Positions 25,083-56,193 of a stretch of DNA of 64,000 bases are shown piece by piece. The translations under genes were made by a program, and so were the position numbers. Each line of letters opens with the position of its first letter. Within the stretch, counting starts at the first letter, position 1. This stretch comes from Gemmatimonadaceae bacterium (GTDB taxonomy: Bacteria; Gemmatimonadota; Gemmatimonadetes; Gemmatimonadales; Gemmatimonadaceae), in assembly GCA_045803545.1 (NCBI GenBank), contig JBJMOW010000004.1, positions 960,001-1,024,000 on the forward strand, read 5' to 3'. The notes beneath the pieces were generated by a model. The model was not told the origin of the DNA and ran no database searches. It saw only the letters and a list, made by a program, of their open reading frames with translations.

Positions 25083-26974
25083 GCCGTCTTCGCCTCGGTG
25101 GCAGCCAGGGTATCACGGAAGACATCGAGCGCGAGCTCCACTTTTCCAAATGGCGCCGACACCTGCACACCCTGGACATGCGGTCGCACGCGTTCGAGCA
25201 TCTCGCGAGCAATGGCGATTCCTTCGGCGACGCCGTGCTCCTTCGACTTCGCGCTTGCAGCCCGCATGCGCTCGATGATCTTCGGTGGCACGACGACGCC
25301 GGGGACTTCGTTGGCGAGGAACTCGGCGTTGCGCAAAGAGACGAGCGGCCAAATGCCGGCCACGATCGGAATCCGCACGTGGTCGATCGTGGAAAGGAAT
25401 TTGTCCAGCTGATTCACGTCAAACACCGGCTGTGTAATGGCGTATTCGGCGCCCGCTTCGACCTTCCACTCAAACCTCTTTAGTTCATGAGCGGGATCGA
25501 TCGCCGCCGGATTCACGCCGACGCCGATGGTGAACTTCGTCGGCTGGCCAATCGCGTTGGCGCCGGGATCGAGGCCGTGATTCAGGTTGCTCACCAGATT
25601 GGTGAGTCCGATCGCATCGATGTCGAAAACGGCGGTCGCATTAGGATACGGACCCATTTTCGGCGGATCGCCCGTGATCAGTAGCAAGTTGCGGAGGCCG
25701 ACCGCCGACGCTCCCAACAAATCGCTTAACATCCCCAGCAGATTGCGATCGCGACAGCAGTAATGGATGACAGTCTCGATTCCGACCTGCTGCTCGATGA
25801 GAATGCTGCAGAGGAGTGCACCCATCCGCGACTGAGCGCGCGGGCCGTCAGGGACGTTGACCGCGTCGACGCCTGCATCACGCAATGCAGCGGTGTCGCG
25901 AATCATCTTTGCCGCATCGACACCGCGCGGTGGAACGATCTCGACAGAGGTTACGAACTCTCCAGTGGCGATCTTGCGCCCCCACTTCGAACGCTCCGCG
26001 AGTGGCACGGGCTGGACCCCCGGATTCTCCGGCGGCACATCGGGATGACTCTGCCGCCTCTCCTTCATCGGCACGCGCGCCTGGCGTGGCGAAAGGGGAC
26101 GCACTCCCTCTACCATCGCCGCGATGTGCTCCGGCGTTGTTCCGCAGCAGCCCCCGACGATCTTGGCACCGGCCTGGACCAGGTGATGGGCATAGGTGGC
26201 CATGTACTCGGGGCTCGCCATGTACATGCTGCGACCGCTTACGTCGCGTGGCATGCCTGCGTTCGGCTGAGCAGATAATTTCCGCCGCGTAACCTGCGCC
26301 ATCTTTTCGATCGCATCGAGAATGATCTGCGGACCGACGGAGCAGTTGAGGCCGATGACGTCGGCGCCGAATGCGTCGAGCGTTTGCGCGAGATCTTCGG
26401 GCGTTACTCCATACGGAGTGTGACAATCAGAACCGATCGTCATCTGTGCGATGACAGGTATAGTCGCATCGACTTCGCGTGCGGCGAGAATCGCCTGCTC
26501 GACTTCGTGGATATCAGCGAAGGTCTCTAGGAGGAATAAATCGCAGCCCCCGTCCTTGAGCGCCTGCAACTGTTCACGGAATGCGGCGCGCGCCTCATCG
26601 AGACTGGTCGGACCAAAAGGCTCGATGCGAAGACCGAGCGGACCGACGGCGCCCGCCACAAGCAGCTCACCGTCCGCAACTTCGCGCGCCAGCTTTGCGG
26701 CAGCGCGATTGATCTCCGCCACCTGCGCGACGAGTCCGTATTGCTCGAGCTTGAAGCGATTGGCGCCGAAGCTATTGGTCTCCAGCACCTCGGCTCCCGC
26801 TTTCTTGTACGCCTTGTGGACGTCGCGCACGAGATCCGGCGCCCTAAGGTTAAGCTCGTCGTAGCACTGATTGATGAAGACGCCCTTGTTGTACAGCATC
26901 GTCCCCATCGCGCCGTCGAAGACGACGACCTGAAGCGGATCGAGAAGTCGCGACAGCAGCGGATTGTCAGGCAA
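25079..26974 (-). CDS. yitJ: Bifunctional homocysteine S-methyltransferase / 5,10-methylenetetrahydrofolate reductase (YitJ-like)
   Basis: DGAMGT, GLNCSVGP, GGCCGTTPEHI, then MTHFR domain (CRDRN, ITGDPP, ITQP); GGAGG plus TTG start at 26974 overlapping the metH stop. Confidence 0.9.
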   Translation of the reverse strand: MPDNPLLSRLLDPLQVVVFDGAMGTMLYNKGVFINQCYDELNLRAPDLVRDVHKAYKKAGAEVLETNSFGANRFKLEQYGLVAQVAEINRAAAKLAREVADGELLVAGAVGPLGLRIEPFGPTSLDEARAAFREQLQALKDGGCDLFLLETFADIHEVEQAILAAREVDATIPVIAQMTIGSDCHTPYGVTPEDLAQTLDAFGADVIGLNCSVGPQIILDAIEKMAQVTRRKLSAQPNAGMPRDVSGRSMYMASPEYMATYAHHLVQAGAKIVGGCCGTTPEHIAAMVEGVRPLSPRQARVPMKERRQSHPDVPPENPGVQPVPLAERSKWGRKIATGEFVTSVEIVPPRGVDAAKMIRDTAALRDAGVDAVNVPDGPRAQSRMGALLCSILIEQQVGIETVIHYCCRDRNLLGMLSDLLGASAVGLRNLLLITGDPPKMGPYPNATAVFDIDAIGLTNLVSNLNHGLDPGANAIGQPTKFTIGVGVNPAAIDPAHELKRFEWKVEAGAEYAITQPVFDVNQLDKFLSTIDHVRIPIVAGIWPLVSLRNAEFLANEVPGVVVPPKIIERMRAASAKSKEHGVAEGIAIAREMLERVRPHVQGVQVSAPFGKVELALDVFRDTLAATEAKTA

Positions 26975-29900
26975 CGGCGGCCTCCGGCGCGCCGGCTTGC
27001 GCACCCGTGCCGCGCACGGCGTAGTACTTCGCCTCTGGATGGTGCATGATCACTGCGGCGGTCGATTGTTCGGGCAGCAGCTGGAACGCTTCGGTGAGAT
27101 CCATGCCGAGCGCTTCTTTTGCGGGAAGCAGTTTGAACACGACGGTGTGATCGTCGAGATCGGGGCATGCGCCGTAGCCCCACGAGTATCTCTTCCCACT
27201 ATCTACGCCCAACTCTTTCTTGATGCGTCGATGCGCCCACTCGGCGACCGCTTCCGCCGATTCGACCGAGAGTCCGTGCGAGTAGAACGCTTCGGTGTAT
27301 TCGTTCCTGCCCTGGAGTTCGTCGAACCGCTTCGTCGCTTCGTCGCCGACGGTGACGACCTGCAGCGGTACGACGTCTACATCACCTGAATCCACGCTAC
27401 GCACATAGTCGGCGAGACAAAGCCGCTCGCGACCGACCATTCGCGGGAAGTGAAATCGCGCGATCTCGCGCAGCGAGCCGCCGTCGCTCGAGTATGCAGC
27501 CGGATCATAGATGATTACGTCGTTGCCCTTGGATTGGGCAGGGAAGTAGCCGTAGACGACTTGCGGTTTGATCCAACCGTTCTGCTTCGCATTTTTCTTG
27601 AGACGCTCGAGCGCGGGCTCGAACTCTTTCTTTACGGTTTGTTTGTAGGCATCGCCTGAGCCGCGCGCGCCCCACTGCAGGCGATATAGCTCGTCGAGAT
27701 CCAGCAGGTCGAATACTTCGTCGAGCGGAATGTCACGAATGACGCGGGTGCCCCAGAATGGCGGCTTAGGAACAGGATTGTTTGCCGCGACGTCGCTGCG
27801 CTCGCCACCTGCCTCGCCGACCGCGATGTCTTTGCCGACAGCAGTCTTCAGGAAAACGTCGTTGCGGGCGTCTTCGAGATTCTTGATCACGAATTCTTTG
27901 CGCTGCTTCGGATCCTGGAGCACGTCCATCGTCTCCAGTCCCTCGAAGGCATCCTTGCAGTAGAAGACGCCGGAACCGTAGTGTCGATCGCCGTCGACGA
28001 ACAGCGCCCGGCGGCCGAACCGACGATTGATTGCCGCGCCGCCGATCAACACGGGAATCTTCATCCCGCGCTTGTCGAGCTCCTGAACGCATAGCGGCAT
28101 CTGCTTCGACGTCGACACCAGCAGCGCACTCAATCCAATCGCATCAGCGCCAACTTCAACCGCCTTGTCCAGAATCGTGTTGACCGGAACTTGCTTGCCG
28201 AGGTCGTAGACGGTGTAGCCGTTGTTGGAGAGAATGGTGTTGACGAGCGATTTGCCGATGTCATGCACGTCGCCGTAGACCGTCGCGAGGACGACTTTGC
28301 CCTTGGTGAATCCCTCGGCCTTCTCGAGGAACTGCTCGAGATGTTTGACCGCCTTTTTCATTACTTCAGCGGACTGCAGAACGAAGGGGAGAATCAGCTC
28401 GCCAGCGCCGAACTTATCGCCGACTTCTTTCATCGCTGGCAGCAAGACATCGTTGAGCACCCGCACCGGATTCTCGCGCACGCCGGCGGTATCGAGCTGC
28501 TCTTCGATTCCTTCTTTCTTGCGGTGGAGGATCATCCAGTGGATGCGCTGATCCGACGTCATGCCCGCGGTCGGATCCTCTTTCTCGTTTTGCGTCGCCG
28601 CTGCGCCTGGTCCGGCCGCCGCGTAATGTTCGATGAAACGCTGAAGCGCGTCCGCCCGCTTGTTGAACACAAGATCATCGGCAAGCTCGCGCTCCGCCTG
28701 TGATATCTCGGCATAGGGCCGGATGTGCGCGGGATTGACGATCGCCGCGTCGAGCCCAGCCTGCACGCAATGGTGCAGGAACACCGAGTTGAGAACGCCC
28801 CGAGCATCCGGCGACAGACCAAAGCTGACGTTGGACACGCCAAGGATGGTCGATACGCCCGGGAGCTCGCGCTTTATGAGTCGAATGCCCTCGATCGTCT
28901 CTTTGCCCGACTCGATCCACTCCGCATCACCGGTCGCCAGCGTGAAGGTGAGCGCATCGTAGATGATATCCTCGGGTGCGAGGCCGTACTCATCGACAAC
29001 GATGTCGTAAATCTTTCTGGCGACCTCGAGCTTTCGCTCGCGGGTCTTTGCCATGCCGATCTCGTCGATGGTGAGCGCAATCACGGCTGCGCCGTGCTTT
29101 TTCACCAACGGCACCACAGCATCGATGCGCTTGCGGCCATTCTCCATATTGATGGAGTTCACGATTCCACGGCCGGGAATGTGCTCGAGCGCTTTCTCGA
29201 TGACGTTGGCTTCGGTCGAGTCGATGACGAGCGGCGTCTCAACGCTCATCGACAACAGCTTGACGACCTTCGACATCTGCTCGGCTTCGTCCGCGCGCTC
29301 GGTGAGCGCCACACAGACGTCGAGGACGTGCGCGCCCGAATCGACCTGATCGCGCGCCACCTCGAGAATGCCCTCGTAGTCGTCCGCGAGCAGGAGGCGC
29401 TTCACCTTGCGAGACCCCTGCGAATTGACGCGCTCCCCGACCAGAAGCGGCGGCGGATCCTGATGCAATGTGATCGCGCGCATCGCCGAGCTGACGCGTG
29501 GAACGTGACTCGGATGTTGAGGCTTCGATTCGGGCTCGGCTTTTCGAACCGCCTTGACGATCGCCGACAGGTGCTCGGGCGTCGTCCCACAACAGCCGCC
29601 CACGATACGAACACCGAAGTCGCGCACGAATTCCGAGAGCGCGGCCGCCATTGGTGCCGGCTCGAGCGGATAAACAGCTTCGCCGACGCCAGTGTTGAGC
29701 GGCAATCCCGCATTCGGAATTACCGAGAGCGGCAGAGTGGCATGCTCCGAGAGATAGCGAATTGGCTCGCGCATGTGCTCGGGACCAGTCGAGCAATTCA
29801 GTCCGATGACATCGACGTTGAGCGCCTCGAGTGTCGTCATCGCGCTGGCGATGTCGGTGCCGAGCAGCATGCGGCCGCTGACGTCGAGCGTGACCTGCGC

Positions 29901-30497
29901 CTGGATCGGAACGCGACGCCCGATTTCCGCGAACAGCTGCTCGATGCCGGCGACTGCAGCTTTTACTTCGAGGATGTCCTGCGAGGTCTCGATCAGAAGA
30001 ACGTCGACGCCGCCTTCGACGAGATACTTCGCCTGCTCGTAGTAATTCGCCGCGAGCTCTTCGTAGGTGATTTTGGATAGGGCCGGATCGGAGCTGGAAG
30101 GCAGCATTCCGGTTGGTCCCATCGATGCAGCGACGAACCGCGGTTTATCCGGCGTTGAGAATTTGTCCGCCGCCGCTCGCGCGAGCCGCGCCGCCGCGAT
30201 GTTGACCTCGCGCACTTTGTCGCCCAATCCCCATTCGTGCAACCGGCGCGGAGTCGACTGGAATGTGCAGGTCTCCACGACGTCGCAACCGACTTTCAGG
30301 AAGGATTCATGGATTTCCTGAATGACATCAGGCCGGGTGAGGACGAGGTGATCGTTGCACCCTTCGAGCGCTTTGCCTCCGAAATCTTCGGCGGTCAAGT
30401 GATAGCGCTGGATGTTCGTCCCCATCGCGCCGTCATAAACGAGGACGCGGCGATTCAGTTCTTCGAGGTAGCGAGAATCAATCTTTCGTTCAGCCAT
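26967..30497 (-). CDS. metH: Cobalamin-dependent methionine synthase
   Basis: Hcy domain (GGCCGT), pterin domain (GERVN), B12 motif GDVHDIGK, reactivation motif RYSWGYGACPDL; start moved to ATG 30497 (SD GGGAG) downstream of the riboswitch. Confidence 0.96.
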   Translation of the reverse strand: MAERKIDSRYLEELNRRVLVYDGAMGTNIQRYHLTAEDFGGKALEGCNDHLVLTRPDVIQEIHESFLKVGCDVVETCTFQSTPRRLHEWGLGDKVREVNIAAARLARAAADKFSTPDKPRFVAASMGPTGMLPSSSDPALSKITYEELAANYYEQAKYLVEGGVDVLLIETSQDILEVKAAVAGIEQLFAEIGRRVPIQAQVTLDVSGRMLLGTDIASAMTTLEALNVDVIGLNCSTGPEHMREPIRYLSEHATLPLSVIPNAGLPLNTGVGEAVYPLEPAPMAAALSEFVRDFGVRIVGGCCGTTPEHLSAIVKAVRKAEPESKPQHPSHVPRVSSAMRAITLHQDPPPLLVGERVNSQGSRKVKRLLLADDYEGILEVARDQVDSGAHVLDVCVALTERADEAEQMSKVVKLLSMSVETPLVIDSTEANVIEKALEHIPGRGIVNSINMENGRKRIDAVVPLVKKHGAAVIALTIDEIGMAKTRERKLEVARKIYDIVVDEYGLAPEDIIYDALTFTLATGDAEWIESGKETIEGIRLIKRELPGVSTILGVSNVSFGLSPDARGVLNSVFLHHCVQAGLDAAIVNPAHIRPYAEISQAERELADDLVFNKRADALQRFIEHYAAAGPGAAATQNEKEDPTAGMTSDQRIHWMILHRKKEGIEEQLDTAGVRENPVRVLNDVLLPAMKEVGDKFGAGELILPFVLQSAEVMKKAVKHLEQFLEKAEGFTKGKVVLATVYGDVHDIGKSLVNTILSNNGYTVYDLGKQVPVNTILDKAVEVGADAIGLSALLVSTSKQMPLCVQELDKRGMKIPVLIGGAAINRRFGRRALFVDGDRHYGSGVFYCKDAFEGLETMDVLQDPKQRKEFVIKNLEDARNDVFLKTAVGKDIAVGEAGGERSDVAANNPVPKPPFWGTRVIRDIPLDEVFDLLDLDELYRLQWGARGSGDAYKQTVKKEFEPALERLKKNAKQNGWIKPQVVYGYFPAQSKGNDVIIYDPAAYSSDGGSLREIARFHFPRMVGRERLCLADYVRSVDSGDVDVVPLQVVTVGDEATKRFDELQGRNEYTEAFYSHGLSVESAEAVAEWAHRRIKKELGVDSGKRYSWGYGACPDLDDHTVVFKLLPAKEALGMDLTEAFQLLPEQSTAAVIMHHPEAKYYAVRGTGAQAGAPEAAVA

Positions 30498-30532
30498 CGG
30501 TTCCCAGCTCCCGCTCTTAACTGAGCGGTAAC

Positions 30533-30559
30533 AAAAAAGCCCGCGCATAGGCGCCGGGC
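30533..30559 (-). terminator. Intrinsic terminator in the metH leader (riboswitch expression platform)
   Basis: Minus strand GCCCGGCGC-CTAT-GCGCGGGC-TTTTTT directly after the aptamer. Confidence 0.75.
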
Positions 30560-30564
30560 CAGCG

Positions 30565-30612
30565 CTTTAGCGGATTGTTTAACGTGGCCGCAAGTTGCTT
30601 TAAATCGCCACG
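30565..30612 (-). ncRNA. SAM-II (SAM_alpha-type) riboswitch aptamer
   Basis: Minus strand CGTGGCGATTT-AAAGCAACTTGCGG-CCACG-TTAAACAATCCGCTAAAG matches the SAM-II pattern (CGUGG/CCACG P1, GAUUU, UAAA..GCUAAA); located 5' of metH. Confidence 0.88.
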
Positions 30613-30634
30613 ATTTCGATTAACACCCTTCGCT

Positions 30635-30663
30635 ATTGTAGTGAGGAGATCGGCGCTCGGCAA
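30635..30663 (-). promoter_or_regulatory. Sigma70-type promoter of the metH leader
   Basis: TTGCCG-17 nt-TACAAT on the minus strand, upstream of the aptamer. Confidence 0.7.
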
Positions 30664-30675
30664 GTTCTTGATGCG

Positions 30676-31300
30676 GATTGAGGCGTTCGGACCAACAGCC
30701 ATTCCGGAGTTCGGATTAATTGAGGGCCGAGGGGTAGACCCGCAATCGAAGGGTAGTTGGCACGCGCGAAAGGTTCTTGAACGCTTGGGCGACCACATAG
30801 CTTAGCGGCGTGAGTCATAAGCTATCGCCCGTGAGTGCAGATACTTCGAACGACCCGCTGCTCAGAATGCGAGCTTACACTCTTGGCCAGGAGTTACTCG
30901 ACGTGGCCTGGGTGGATGCAAAAACACTGAGTGGTGACGCGCTCACAGAACAGATTTCCGGACAACTTTACGCAGCAATCGCTTCGATTTCTGCGAACAT
31001 TGGCGAGGGATATTCTCGCAGTTCCGGCAAAGATCGTTCGAGAATATTTGAGTACGCGCTCGGCTCGGTTCGTGAAGCGATGGTCTGGTACCGAGCAGCG
31101 AAGCCAGTCATTGGGGAGGTTTCGACCGAACGACTCAACAAGTTGGAAGAGATTCGGCGCATGCTTCTGGTCATAATCCCGCGAGAACGCGGCAAGACTA
31201 TTCGTCCAAAGAATCGCCCGGGCTTAACTAACTAAAGTTAGATCCTCGCCCCTCAATTAATCCGAACTCCGAACTGGCCGTTGGTCCGAACGCCTCAATC
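30676..31300. mobile_element. 625-bp inverted-repeat-bounded cassette carrying a four-helix-bundle gene (putative mobile element)
   Basis: Arms 30676-30732 and 31244-31300 are reverse complements at 53/57 positions; empty copies exist elsewhere in the window; mobility is inferred. Confidence 0.7.
30810..31235 (+). CDS. Four-helix-bundle protein (23S rRNA intervening-sequence protein / S23 family)
   Basis: QLYAAIASISANIGEGYSRSSGKDRSRIFEYALGSVRE fits the family signature QL..A..SI.ANI.EG..R.S.KD...F...A.GS..E. Confidence 0.9.
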   Translation: MSHKLSPVSADTSNDPLLRMRAYTLGQELLDVAWVDAKTLSGDALTEQISGQLYAAIASISANIGEGYSRSSGKDRSRIFEYALGSVREAMVWYRAAKPVIGEVSTERLNKLEEIRRMLLVIIPRERGKTIRPKNRPGLTN

Positions 31301-31712
31301 AAAACTGTACCTGATAATCCTCCCCGCCAATTTCCCTCTGCGATCTGCCCGTCGTCCTCGATCTGCAATCAAACGACTGTACCAACGCCATCAAGCGCTG
31401 CCTCTCCAACGGCAAAACCAAATGCGCCAAAGTCGCCCGCTGCAGCTTCGGCGGCAGAAAGAGATGCTCTCCATGCGATTTTCCGTAGACGATCAACGCG
31501 GCGTTAGTAGTGAGGGGAAGCGATGCGGCCTGACCGGCTTCCGTTACCTCCTCACTCGATACGACTACAACCTCGGTTTCGTCCGCGCGCATCATAGCTG
31601 CCGCGTCCGGGAGCGTTGCCGCGAACTCGACATCGTGACCGCAGCCGAGCAGGGTTTGCGCTAAGCCCTCGAGCAGCGCGACGTCGGCGCCGACGAGTAT
31701 CACCTTACACAT
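31299..31712 (-). CDS. Hypothetical protein, possibly a degenerate receiver-like fold
   Basis: KVILVGADVALLEGLAQTL..GHDV alpha/beta pattern without the conserved Asp residues. Confidence 0.6.
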   Translation of the reverse strand: MCKVILVGADVALLEGLAQTLLGCGHDVEFAATLPDAAAMMRADETEVVVVSSEEVTEAGQAASLPLTTNAALIVYGKSHGEHLFLPPKLQRATLAHLVLPLERQRLMALVQSFDCRSRTTGRSQREIGGEDYQVQF

Positions 31713-31831
31713 CGCAGCAAGCCTCAGCCATTCTTTGAATCGACTCGGGGTGAACTCTTGTGCGCCTCTACTACCTTTCGTGACGCGGGTCGCTCACGAT
31801 GCACACATTGCGCCGTGAGTGGTGCGCCCGC

Positions 31832-32422
31832 TCATACCAGTCGCAACAATCCTGACTGGATGATGCCGAGTAGGATGTAGGCGATGATCGGCGTGATGTC
31901 GAGCCCGCCAAGCACCGGAACTATTCGCCGCAGCGGCGACAGGATCGGCTCGCTCAGTCGGTAACTCCAGCTGACCCAGGGCGAGTAGGGAGAGATCGGG
32001 AGCCACGAGCTGATCACTCTCACGATCAGCGCAGTCTTGAGAATGGTGAACGTCCAACTCACCAGCAGCTGGAAGATGCCCGCGGAACCTGCCTCTGCGG
32101 CGTAAACCGACTTGACTACCTGGAGTCGAATAATGTCGACGACAGTCAGCAGCAAAATTCCACCGATCACGACAGCCGCCAATGCCCATAACGGTGCAGA
32201 TGCAGGGGCACCCCCCGCCCGCACTACTCGGCGCTCGATCGGCGCGATGAATGGATCGACAGTCGAGCGACAAAAGCGCGCGACTGAGTTGAACGGACTG
32301 ATTTTTCTGGTGCGCACTGCCCAGTCCAGCAGGCAGATGGCGCCGAATACGGCCGCGAGGGACAACAGCACGGTACGCAGTATTTGAAGCACTGCATCCG
32401 CGCCGTTCAGGAATGTCTCCAT
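31832..32422 (-). CDS. yggT: YggT family membrane protein
   Basis: Two YGGT repeats; SEPILSPLRRIVPVLGGLDITPI. Confidence 0.9.
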   Translation of the reverse strand: METFLNGADAVLQILRTVLLSLAAVFGAICLLDWAVRTRKISPFNSVARFCRSTVDPFIAPIERRVVRAGGAPASAPLWALAAVVIGGILLLTVVDIIRLQVVKSVYAAEAGSAGIFQLLVSWTFTILKTALIVRVISSWLPISPYSPWVSWSYRLSEPILSPLRRIVPVLGGLDITPIIAYILLGIIQSGLLRLV

Positions 32423-56070: not shown

Positions 56071-56193
56071 GATTGAGGCGTTCGGACCAACAGCCAGTGC
56101 GGAGTCCGGATTAAGTGAGGAATTCGGAAAAGTTCTCTCACCTCAATTATTCCGAAATCCGCCGGTCTGGCAGTTTGTCCGAACGCCTCAATC
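56071..56193. repeat. 123-bp empty copy of the GATTGAGGCGTTCGGAC IR element
   Basis: Both roughly 50-bp arms of the 30676 element are present around a 20-bp spacer, with no ORF. Confidence 0.92.

Follow-up and report, generated by a model that had tools for sequence, protein, structure and literature searches.

A hairpin-bounded cassette carrying a four-helix-bundle gene upstream of metH in a Gemmatimonadaceae genome, and its gene-less relatives

Upstream of the promoter of the methionine synthase gene metH, a Gemmatimonadaceae genome carries a 625-bp cassette in which one small gene of the four-helix-bundle family PF05635/TIGR02436, known from intervening sequences (IVSs) of 23S rRNA, lies inside a long hairpin. 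The cassette occupies positions 30676-31300 of the 64,000-nt stretch analysed here (the window, G000:C2:960001-1024000), whose numbering is used below unless a contig is named. The arms and the gene behave as a single block, which is gained and lost as a whole and also occurs as such in unrelated contexts. The genome, G000 (a 3.70-Mb assembly of six contigs, 93% complete), contains eight four-helix-bundle cassettes (A-H), of which the one at metH is cassette F. We put at about even the chances that it is a selfish, hairpin-bounded element with the build of a 23S rRNA IVS but located between protein genes, whose protein likely binds the conserved arm ends and would promote the copying of the element and of gene-less derivatives.

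Architecture of the cassette

An inverted-repeat search delimited two arms of 57 nt each, complementary at 53 of 57 positions (93%) and separated by 511 nt. The cassette has the following parts:

30676-30732, left arm, 57 nt, with the terminus conserved in the repeat family as its outer 14-17 nt (GATTGAGGCGTTCGGAC)
30733-30809, + strand, inner spacer of 77 nt between the left arm and the start codon, poorly conserved
30810-31235, + strand, four-helix-bundle gene (23S-IVS-protein/S23p family), 141 aa, GTG start, with profile and structure matches
31244-31300, right arm, 57 nt; its final 2 nt lie within the stop codon of a host open reading frame (ORF)

The gene is the only long ORF on the + strand between the arms; shorter ORFs are present in other frames (30931-31176 on the + strand, 30968-31195 on the - strand), and the ORF list of the cassette includes no transposase-like ORF. 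The flanks of the cassette (..GATGCG / AAAACT..) contain no direct repeat, i.e., no target-site duplication, and such a duplication is also absent at the eight gene-less copies whose flanks were read. A promoter scan detected no sigma-70-like promoter on the + strand between the left arm and the start codon. The arms are paired in the RNA folds of both strands of the cassette (z-scores of -7.06 and -9.21). The original prediction, made from the sequence of the window, had described the arms, the 141-aa gene, the lack of an internal transposase and of a target-site duplication, and the setting, with a stop codon on one side and the metH promoter on the other, the -35 element of the latter being 12 bp away. 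All of this was borne out, as was the occurrence of the ORF-in-a-long-stem build outside rRNA, the cassette being located between protein genes.

A stretch of 13 nt inside the gene (31126-31138) matches arm positions 3-15 at 12 of 13 positions in inverted orientation; this may be a chance similarity.

The four-helix-bundle protein

The 141-aa protein exceeds the curated cut-offs of both family profiles, scoring 40.4 bits against PF05635 (cut-off 33.8, E 3.8e-10) and 51.4 bits against TIGR02436 (cut-off 24, E 1.1e-13), and it matches the structure 2gsc in a phmmer search at E 0.0045. The AlphaFold2 model consists of four helices (residues 16-41, 47-69, 73-101, and 104-128) with a predicted local distance difference test score (pLDDT) of 83.7, and its ten best matches in Foldseek are all to chains of 2rld and 2gsc (template modelling score, TM, of 0.77-0.81 by target length, with borderline E-values from 1.5e-3 upward). 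The gene belongs to the four-helix-bundle, 23S-IVS-protein family, as had been predicted. To our knowledge, this very large family has been without an assigned function since its first detection in 23S rRNA IVSs in the early 1990s, and Avd is its only characterised relative.

The eight G000 proteins fall into two subfamilies, one formed by A, B, C, D, and H (37-60% identity) and the other by E, F, and G (52-66% identity). The family motif was reported as GxxRxxxSxxxNxxE by a study that also found family genes in cas loci (PMC3936711). The protein of cassette F keeps S59, N63, and E66 of this motif, the Arg and Gly positions being occupied by A55 and Q52, respectively. The replacement of Arg and Gly is common to all nine aligned members of the E/F/G subfamily, whereas the Arg is kept in the other five G000 genes. 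The same nine proteins of this Gemmatimonadota subfamily share an invariant C-terminal IPRER motif, and the weaker profile scores of the subfamily are explained by the loss of the motif Arg (to Ala) together with the presence of this motif of its own.

The start codon of the gene is GTG in G000 and ATG in its nearest relative, G014, as well as in two soil metagenome variants. The genes of G000 and G014 are identical at 121 of 141 amino acid and 320 of 423 nucleotide positions, with a proportion of synonymous differences (pS) of 0.68 and a ratio of nonsynonymous to synonymous substitution rates (dN/dS) of 0.058. To judge from these substitutions, the protein is under strong purifying selection.

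Association of the gene with hairpins

All eight family genes of G000 are bracketed by inverted repeats, which are 22-126 nt long, and each of the eight cassettes has its own arm sequence. The same arm test applied to 400 random 320-bp segments of G000 gave five positives, one of which is another such cassette. Bracketing also applies to 22 of 26 testable family genes in five further genomes of the genus, where two more are located at contig ends. The E/F/G subfamily is represented by 80 loci in public genomes (78 of them labelled Gemmatimonadota), 69 of which have enough flanking sequence for the test. Bracketing was observed for 66 of these 69, the arms having a median length of 66 nt and the cassettes one of 692 bp.

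Several additional observations concern individual cassettes. Related public records assign the lineage to soil Gemmatimonadaceae. In cassette H (G000:C6:61266-61864) the gene is split by a frameshift, while at the shared G014 site (L020, G014:C141) it is intact (123 aa). The proteins of loci L086, on a contig labelled Thermoanaerobaculia, and L091, from Gemmatimonadaceae, are 95% identical and their arms are similar, which reflects either a cross-phylum transfer or a mis-binned 2.7-kb contig.

The family of gene-less hairpins

A BLAST search of G000 with the 57-nt arm identified 12 loci, namely one full copy, the cassette itself, and about 11 gene-less copies. Five of the 12 loci are gene-less hairpins of 106-123 bp, two are mini-palindromes of 29-43 bp, and three are one-armed remnants (C4:1175821, C4:1332111, and C2:296554-296602) with no partner arm within about 1.8 kb. 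Two gene-less copies belong to the window, in agreement with the predicted presence of empty relatives nearby:

56071-56193, gene-less hairpin of 123 bp, with 50 of the 57 arm positions and a short apical loop
13033-13090, gene-less hairpin of 58 bp, formed by the outer arm ends only

The 25-nt arm end has five matches in the window, compared with none expected from shuffled sequences. All 12 loci were read, and none of them flanks another gene. The original prediction had also depended on there being no insertion sequence (IS) or repetitive extragenic palindrome (REP)-associated transposase with the same ends; none was encountered, given that these arms enclose no other gene and that the Y1/RAYT profile has no match in the assembly.

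In nine gene-less copies from G000 and G014, the outer 14 pairs of the stem are invariant and the inner stem (CGGATTAATTGAGG) hardly varies. Agreement of the gene-less copies with the cassette arm extends over 50-51 of its 57 positions, after which the copies loop; one of them retains a 12-nt exact match to the cassette interior beside the arm. Only one of the six gene-less hairpins of this type in G014 occupies a site common with G000, the other five being located elsewhere. Identity to the G000 arm is 86-96% for the G014 copies, compared with 81-87% for the flanking genes. [quoted passage not shown]

The relationship might also be the reverse, with the gene and its short flanks as the moving part, homing into the tips of pre-existing REP-like hairpins, much as IVSs are seated at the tips of rRNA helices, and the arms as its target; we regard this as quite improbable. 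It would account for the excess of gene-less over gene-bearing copies (about 11 to 1), for the mutual resemblance of the apical loops of the gene-less copies, and for the 6-7 extra paired bases of the cassette past the loop point of these copies, an extra inner piece (TGAGGGCCGA) that resembles the arms of cassette E (protein 64-66% identical). It is at odds with the 12-nt interior match just described, which is what a deletion derivative would keep, with two empty sites opposite cassettes that are devoid of any hairpin, and with the joint inheritance of arms and gene.

Joint inheritance of arms and gene

Arm similarity was scored for pairs of cassettes without flank homology and grouped by protein identity, the pairs not being independent of each other. 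The proportion of pairs with detectable arm similarity declines with protein divergence, from 5/5 at protein identities of at least 90%, 25/31 at 80-90%, and 144/275 at 70-80% to 210/1087 at 60-70% and 68/909 at 50-60%. In the five closest pairs (at least 90%, unrelated flanks), the similarity at the DNA level extends from arm to arm, including the whole arms, and ends at the outer arm edges; one of these pairs, located on two contigs of a single metagenome-assembled genome, shows 91% identity over 665 nt. Since the similarity extends from arm to arm in unrelated contexts, hopping of the gene between foreign hairpins is disfavoured. Further, no closely related genes were found in unrelated arm families among these five pairs.

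The arms of G000 and G014 at the metH site are identical at 50 and 49 of 57 positions, respectively, compared with 34 of 78 positions for the inner spacer. Eleven arm positions differ between the two species, three of these being compensatory double changes that keep the pair, and the stem has 53 of 57 pairs in both species. In view of the low dN/dS and of the compensatory changes, the protein is functional and the stem is maintained. In all 109 cassette pairs compared at protein identities of 75-98%, conservation is higher in the arm than in the 5' spacer, and in 108 of them it is also higher than at third codon positions. A reservation is that the semi-global alignments overstate short matches in arms as well as in spacers, and that arms rich in repeats are easier to align, a possible bias towards the arms.

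Presence and absence of the cassette at metH

On the minus strand, the order of elements around the insertion is the 137-aa ORF, the cassette, 12 bp, the metH promoter, the SAM-II riboswitch, and metH. The neighbouring features are as follows:

31299-31712, - strand, host ORF of 137 aa; its stop codon shares 2 nt with the right arm, and it adjoins metH in several members of the genus
30635-30663, - strand, metH promoter, with TTGCCG (30663-30658), a 17-nt spacer, and TACAAT ending at 30635; 9 of 12 matches
30543-30621, - strand, SAM-II riboswitch (SAM_alpha, RF00521) in the leader of metH; score of 44.7 bits against a gathering score of 36, E 3.8e-8
26967-30497, - strand, metH, cobalamin-dependent methionine synthase, with ATG 30497 as the likely start

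The latter start was chosen because a longer ORF, reaching to 30548, would overlap the riboswitch. The left arm is separated from the -35 element of the promoter by 12 bp, and the promoter sequence is kept in relatives both with and without the cassette. The 137-aa ORF has no Pfam or NCBIfam match.

The metH site was compared in 14 relatives. The cassette is present in three of them and absent from ten, five of which have both flanks conserved, whereas one is uninformative; in agreement with the mobility originally proposed, the cassette is not fixed at this locus. The same cassette in the same orientation is found in G014. G012 and G017 have a cassette at the site whose arms are related (77% identity over 47 nt) but whose gene is on the opposite strand, and their proteins are 61-63% identical to that of G000, no closer than paralogue E (64%). 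The reversed gene could be a result of either a flip of the segment enclosed by the arms or an independent insertion. In five genomes (G010, G011, G003, G015, and G009), metH, its promoter and the upstream ORF are retained and both cassette and hairpin are missing. Three others (G007, G018, and G006) have different neighbours and no cassette within 2.3 kb, and two (G005 and G001) have no cassette before their contigs end; G016 is the uninformative genome. In soil metagenomes of another study, contigs connect the metH promoter with the cassette and show 15 differences in 641 nt.

Comparison at other sites gives the same picture in the opposite direction. Cassettes of G014 and G006 face empty sites in G000, where gaps of 8 and 20 bp contain no hairpin. 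Four of the cassettes of G014, namely B, C, H, and F, also occur in G000.

Two further sites differ between G000 and G014. At a site common to both, G014 (L016, G014:C74) has an intact gene within a 588-bp cassette whose arms consist of heptamers (GGCGAGA/GGCGGGA), and G000 has only a gene-less heptamer hairpin of 100 bp (G000:C4:669621-669720). A G014 cassette of 640 bp (L036, G014:C204) corresponds in G000 to a 57-bp gap (G000:C4:609937-609994) with AGCGCGGACTA, which matches the terminus of the cassette's arm and may be a footprint of its loss.

Conservation at metH could, on the other hand, mark a fixed, domesticated host module, in which the stem serves as a terminator, RNase III site or insulator before the metH promoter and the protein has a cellular nucleic-acid-binding role. 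The cassette is located where a terminator is expected, with no intrinsic terminator predicted there. It persists at the site in G014 and in soil populations, G012 and G017 have a cassette with related arms there, and the low dN/dS of the gene would fit a cellular role as well. Exact matches to part of the gene and the right arm were also found in a soil RNA library, where two 151-nt contigs cover 31009-31288 and further contigs fall on neighbouring genes; these data are assembled contigs in which transcript ends are not visible, and DNA carry-over is possible. We nevertheless consider a host module improbable. The five relatives listed above keep both flanking genes and the promoter with neither cassette nor hairpin, the same build occurs with unrelated arms at many unrelated sites that differ between sister species, and near-identical cassettes are present in unrelated contexts.

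Mobility enzymes and insertion sites

Profiles of five families of mobility enzymes, PF01797 (Y1/RAYT), PF00078 (RVT_1), PF01609 (DDE_Tnp_1), PF00665 (rve), and PF01548 (IS110), have no match in the 3.7-Mb G000 assembly. Each of these profiles has matches in 3-9 of 14 control genomes (PF01797 in 6 of 14). The region 30000-32000 contains no direct repeats and no template/variable repeat pair.

It is very improbable that the protein is an accessory, Avd-like component of a diversity-generating or other retroelement. The reported resemblance of PF05635 to Avd (PMC10053308) would suit such a role, whereas the lack of an RVT_1 match in the assembly and of a template/variable repeat pair at the locus, as well as the nature of the neighbours (metH and a small conserved ORF), are contrary to it. 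A route via RNA, which had been raised as a possibility for the movement of the cassette itself, likewise found no support: apart from the lack of an RVT_1 match, a test of G-U pairing by strand was not significant, the fold of the strand of the abutting host ORF being better in 10 cases and worse in 6, with 3 ties (p 0.45).

The elements show a tendency to lie directly beside host stop codons. Of 16 curated G000 elements, 13 have such a stop codon at most 6 nt from an end, in comparison with 134 of 5000 random intervals; the test counts ORFs of at least 120 aa, and the 13 elements comprise 6 of 8 cassettes and 7 of 8 gene-less copies of the cassette-F family. The arm end GATTGA itself provides TGA in two frames. 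With a 20-nt margin, the host stop codon is confined to the 3' (convergent) end in 21 of 66 cassettes and to the 5' end in 8, and both ends have one in 11.

Proposed mechanism and its weighing

If the cassette is a selfish element as outlined at the outset, the protein, predicted to be a pentameric ring by homology to 2GSC, would recognise the 14-17-bp termini of the arms in the form of a DNA hairpin, a cruciform or an RNA stem, and would be the factor needed in trans for the spread of both the cassette and the gene-less hairpins. Where transcription reads through the cassette, RNase III would cleave the 57-bp stem in the same way as in rRNA IVSs, and this cleavage would leave the metH promoter and the upstream gene unharmed by the cassette.

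Several observations weigh against this explanation. The proposed link between protein and arms draws on their association, on the conservation of the arms, and on the absence of another candidate enzyme. Co-divergence of arm and protein is expected for any linked DNA, and the slow evolution of the arms may be explained by a pairing constraint or by arm-to-arm conversion that does not involve the protein. The conserved Arg of the published family motif (PMC3936711) is replaced by A55 in this very protein. The preference for stop codons is weaker when element boundaries are assigned automatically (14 of 66 cassettes vs 171 of 3300 shifted controls), and among the elements of a k-mer census of hairpins in G000, a host stop codon lies within 10 nt for 26 of 63. 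No 23S IVS was detected in the matched parts (within positions 15-2044) of the four genus genomes that have partial 23S genes. The assembly is 93% complete, and a mobility enzyme could therefore lie in its missing part.

The remaining points concern the hairpins of G000 that lack a family gene. The k-mer census recorded 57 hairpin elements, which, clustered together with cassettes B and E (missed by the census), form about 34 arm groups, a number that is over-split because some copies of the cassette-F family fall apart. The largest group, (GCGGGAA)n, has 11 members in G000, none of which carries a four-helix-bundle gene, and further hairpin families of the genome are also without such a member. 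Among the 11 census units of at least 400 bp, six contain a family gene, three contain other ORFs, and two are without an ORF. The three units with other cargo, which span 620-908 bp, are:

G000:C2:39095-40002, hairpin unit encoding a SnoaL-like protein (E 1.2e-10)
G000:C4:1137713-1138409, hairpin unit encoding a 128-aa membrane protein, with arms of the cassette-G family
G000:C2:177-796, hairpin unit with a 155-aa ORF and (GCGGGAA)n heptamer arms

The original claim that a four-helix-bundle gene is the only cargo thus stands for the arm family of cassette F but fails for such hairpins in general, and the three units with unrelated ORFs imply that arms of this kind are not strictly dependent on a family gene in cis.

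The units with unrelated cargo, the hairpin families without a four-helix-bundle member and the incompleteness of the assembly would all be expected if the hairpins were moved by some other, unrecognised enzyme or by a host pathway, the gene being only their most frequent passenger, which could provide an addiction, anti-defence or RNA-chaperone function that aids persistence and not movement. We hold this to be unlikely. Five transposase and reverse-transcriptase families are without a match in 3.7 Mb; seen from the side of the gene, the association with hairpins (8/8, 22/26, and 66/69) is above that expected for a random passenger; and the gene is under strong purifying selection inside the element.

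The explanation by a selfish cassette can be extended beyond this genus. As a tentative possibility, with chances clearly short of even, S23p/Avd-like rings may be the mobility proteins of a widespread and hitherto unrecognised class of transposable elements that move as hairpins, make no target duplication, land by stop codons and at the tips of rRNA helices, and spawn gene-less, MITE-like hairpins. If true, this would explain the IVSs of 23S rRNA as well as many orphan families of palindromic repeats.

Relation to known systems

A close likeness is to the ORF-bearing IVSs of 23S rRNA, as in Coxiella burnetii and Leptospira, which share with the cassette the terminal inverted repeats, a long stem around a single ORF of the same family, and the lack of a transposase. 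The cassette differs from them in its location between protein genes, its 57-bp stem, a gene that is under strong purifying selection, and a dispersed gene-less family. The IVS of Coxiella burnetii, in helix 45 of 23S rRNA, is 428 nt long with a 28-bp stem and is excised by RNase III; its ORF is described as decaying and probably untranslated (PMC4990558). That an IVS ORF encodes a mobility component was proposed in 1993 by Ralph and McClelland, as cited in the same paper (PMC4990558). Family ORFs have also been reported in rRNA insertions of bacteria of the candidate phyla radiation (CPR) (PMC11270868).

A tie to rRNA within the genus was sought and dropped: no 23S rRNA gene is assembled in G000, and only 4 of 61 genus genomes have a partial 23S gene scoring above the cut-off, with no insertion seen in the matched parts. 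The tally of 61 includes one unpublished genome (G066), on which no conclusion depends.

The second comparison is with REPINs, REP sequences and their RAYTs, i.e., extragenic hairpin repeats of about 100-150 bp near gene ends, with several families per genome, a Y1 gene flanked by inverted copies, and no target-site duplication. Hairpin repeats of this size near gene ends, several sequence families in a genome, one gene flanked by inverted copies of the repeat that it would serve and the absence of target-site duplications are common to both systems. The flanked gene, however, encodes here a 141-aa four-helix bundle and not a Y1 protein, PF01797 having no match in G000.

Correia-type MITEs resemble the gene-less hairpins in their conserved terminal inverted repeats, size of about 120 bp, many copies, presence/absence differences and folding into stems. 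In contrast to these MITEs, no target-site duplication and no transposase-bearing parent were observed here, and the only full-length relative carries a four-helix-bundle gene. Correia element stems in mRNA are cut by RNase III (PMC10969869). The available portions of two papers on MITEs (PMC10969869, PMC5896051) contain no link between MITEs and a four-helix-bundle protein.

With Avd, the protein shares the fold family; the reverse transcriptase and the template/variable repeats of the Avd systems have no counterpart here. Avd binds nucleic acid, and we know of no description of its genes as hairpin-enclosed. Its likeness to PF05635 and its pentameric state have been reported (PMC10053308).

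A full-text literature search returned no description of such cassettes outside rRNA. New at this locus are the unique, non-repetitive arms with a conserved terminus and the series that leads from the full copy through the gene-less copy to the mini-palindrome. Also new are the site-level comparison with close relatives and a contiguous genome without a match to the transposase families searched. The locus lends itself well to testing: the 57-nt arm sequence is unique, not a simple repeat, and has a conserved terminus of 14-17 bp, and close relatives provide a full copy, gene-less copies both long and short, and empty sites. Should the protein act on the arms, the cassette would represent a new kind of mobile element, provide a testable origin for the rRNA IVSs, and account for some of the REP-like and MITE-like hairpin repeats that have no known enzyme.

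Finally, the leader of metH adds an observation that concerns the neighbouring gene. The SAM-II riboswitch (RF00521), a family named for alpha-proteobacteria, is present here in the metH leader of a member of the Gemmatimonadaceae and is kept in the genus relatives that were read.

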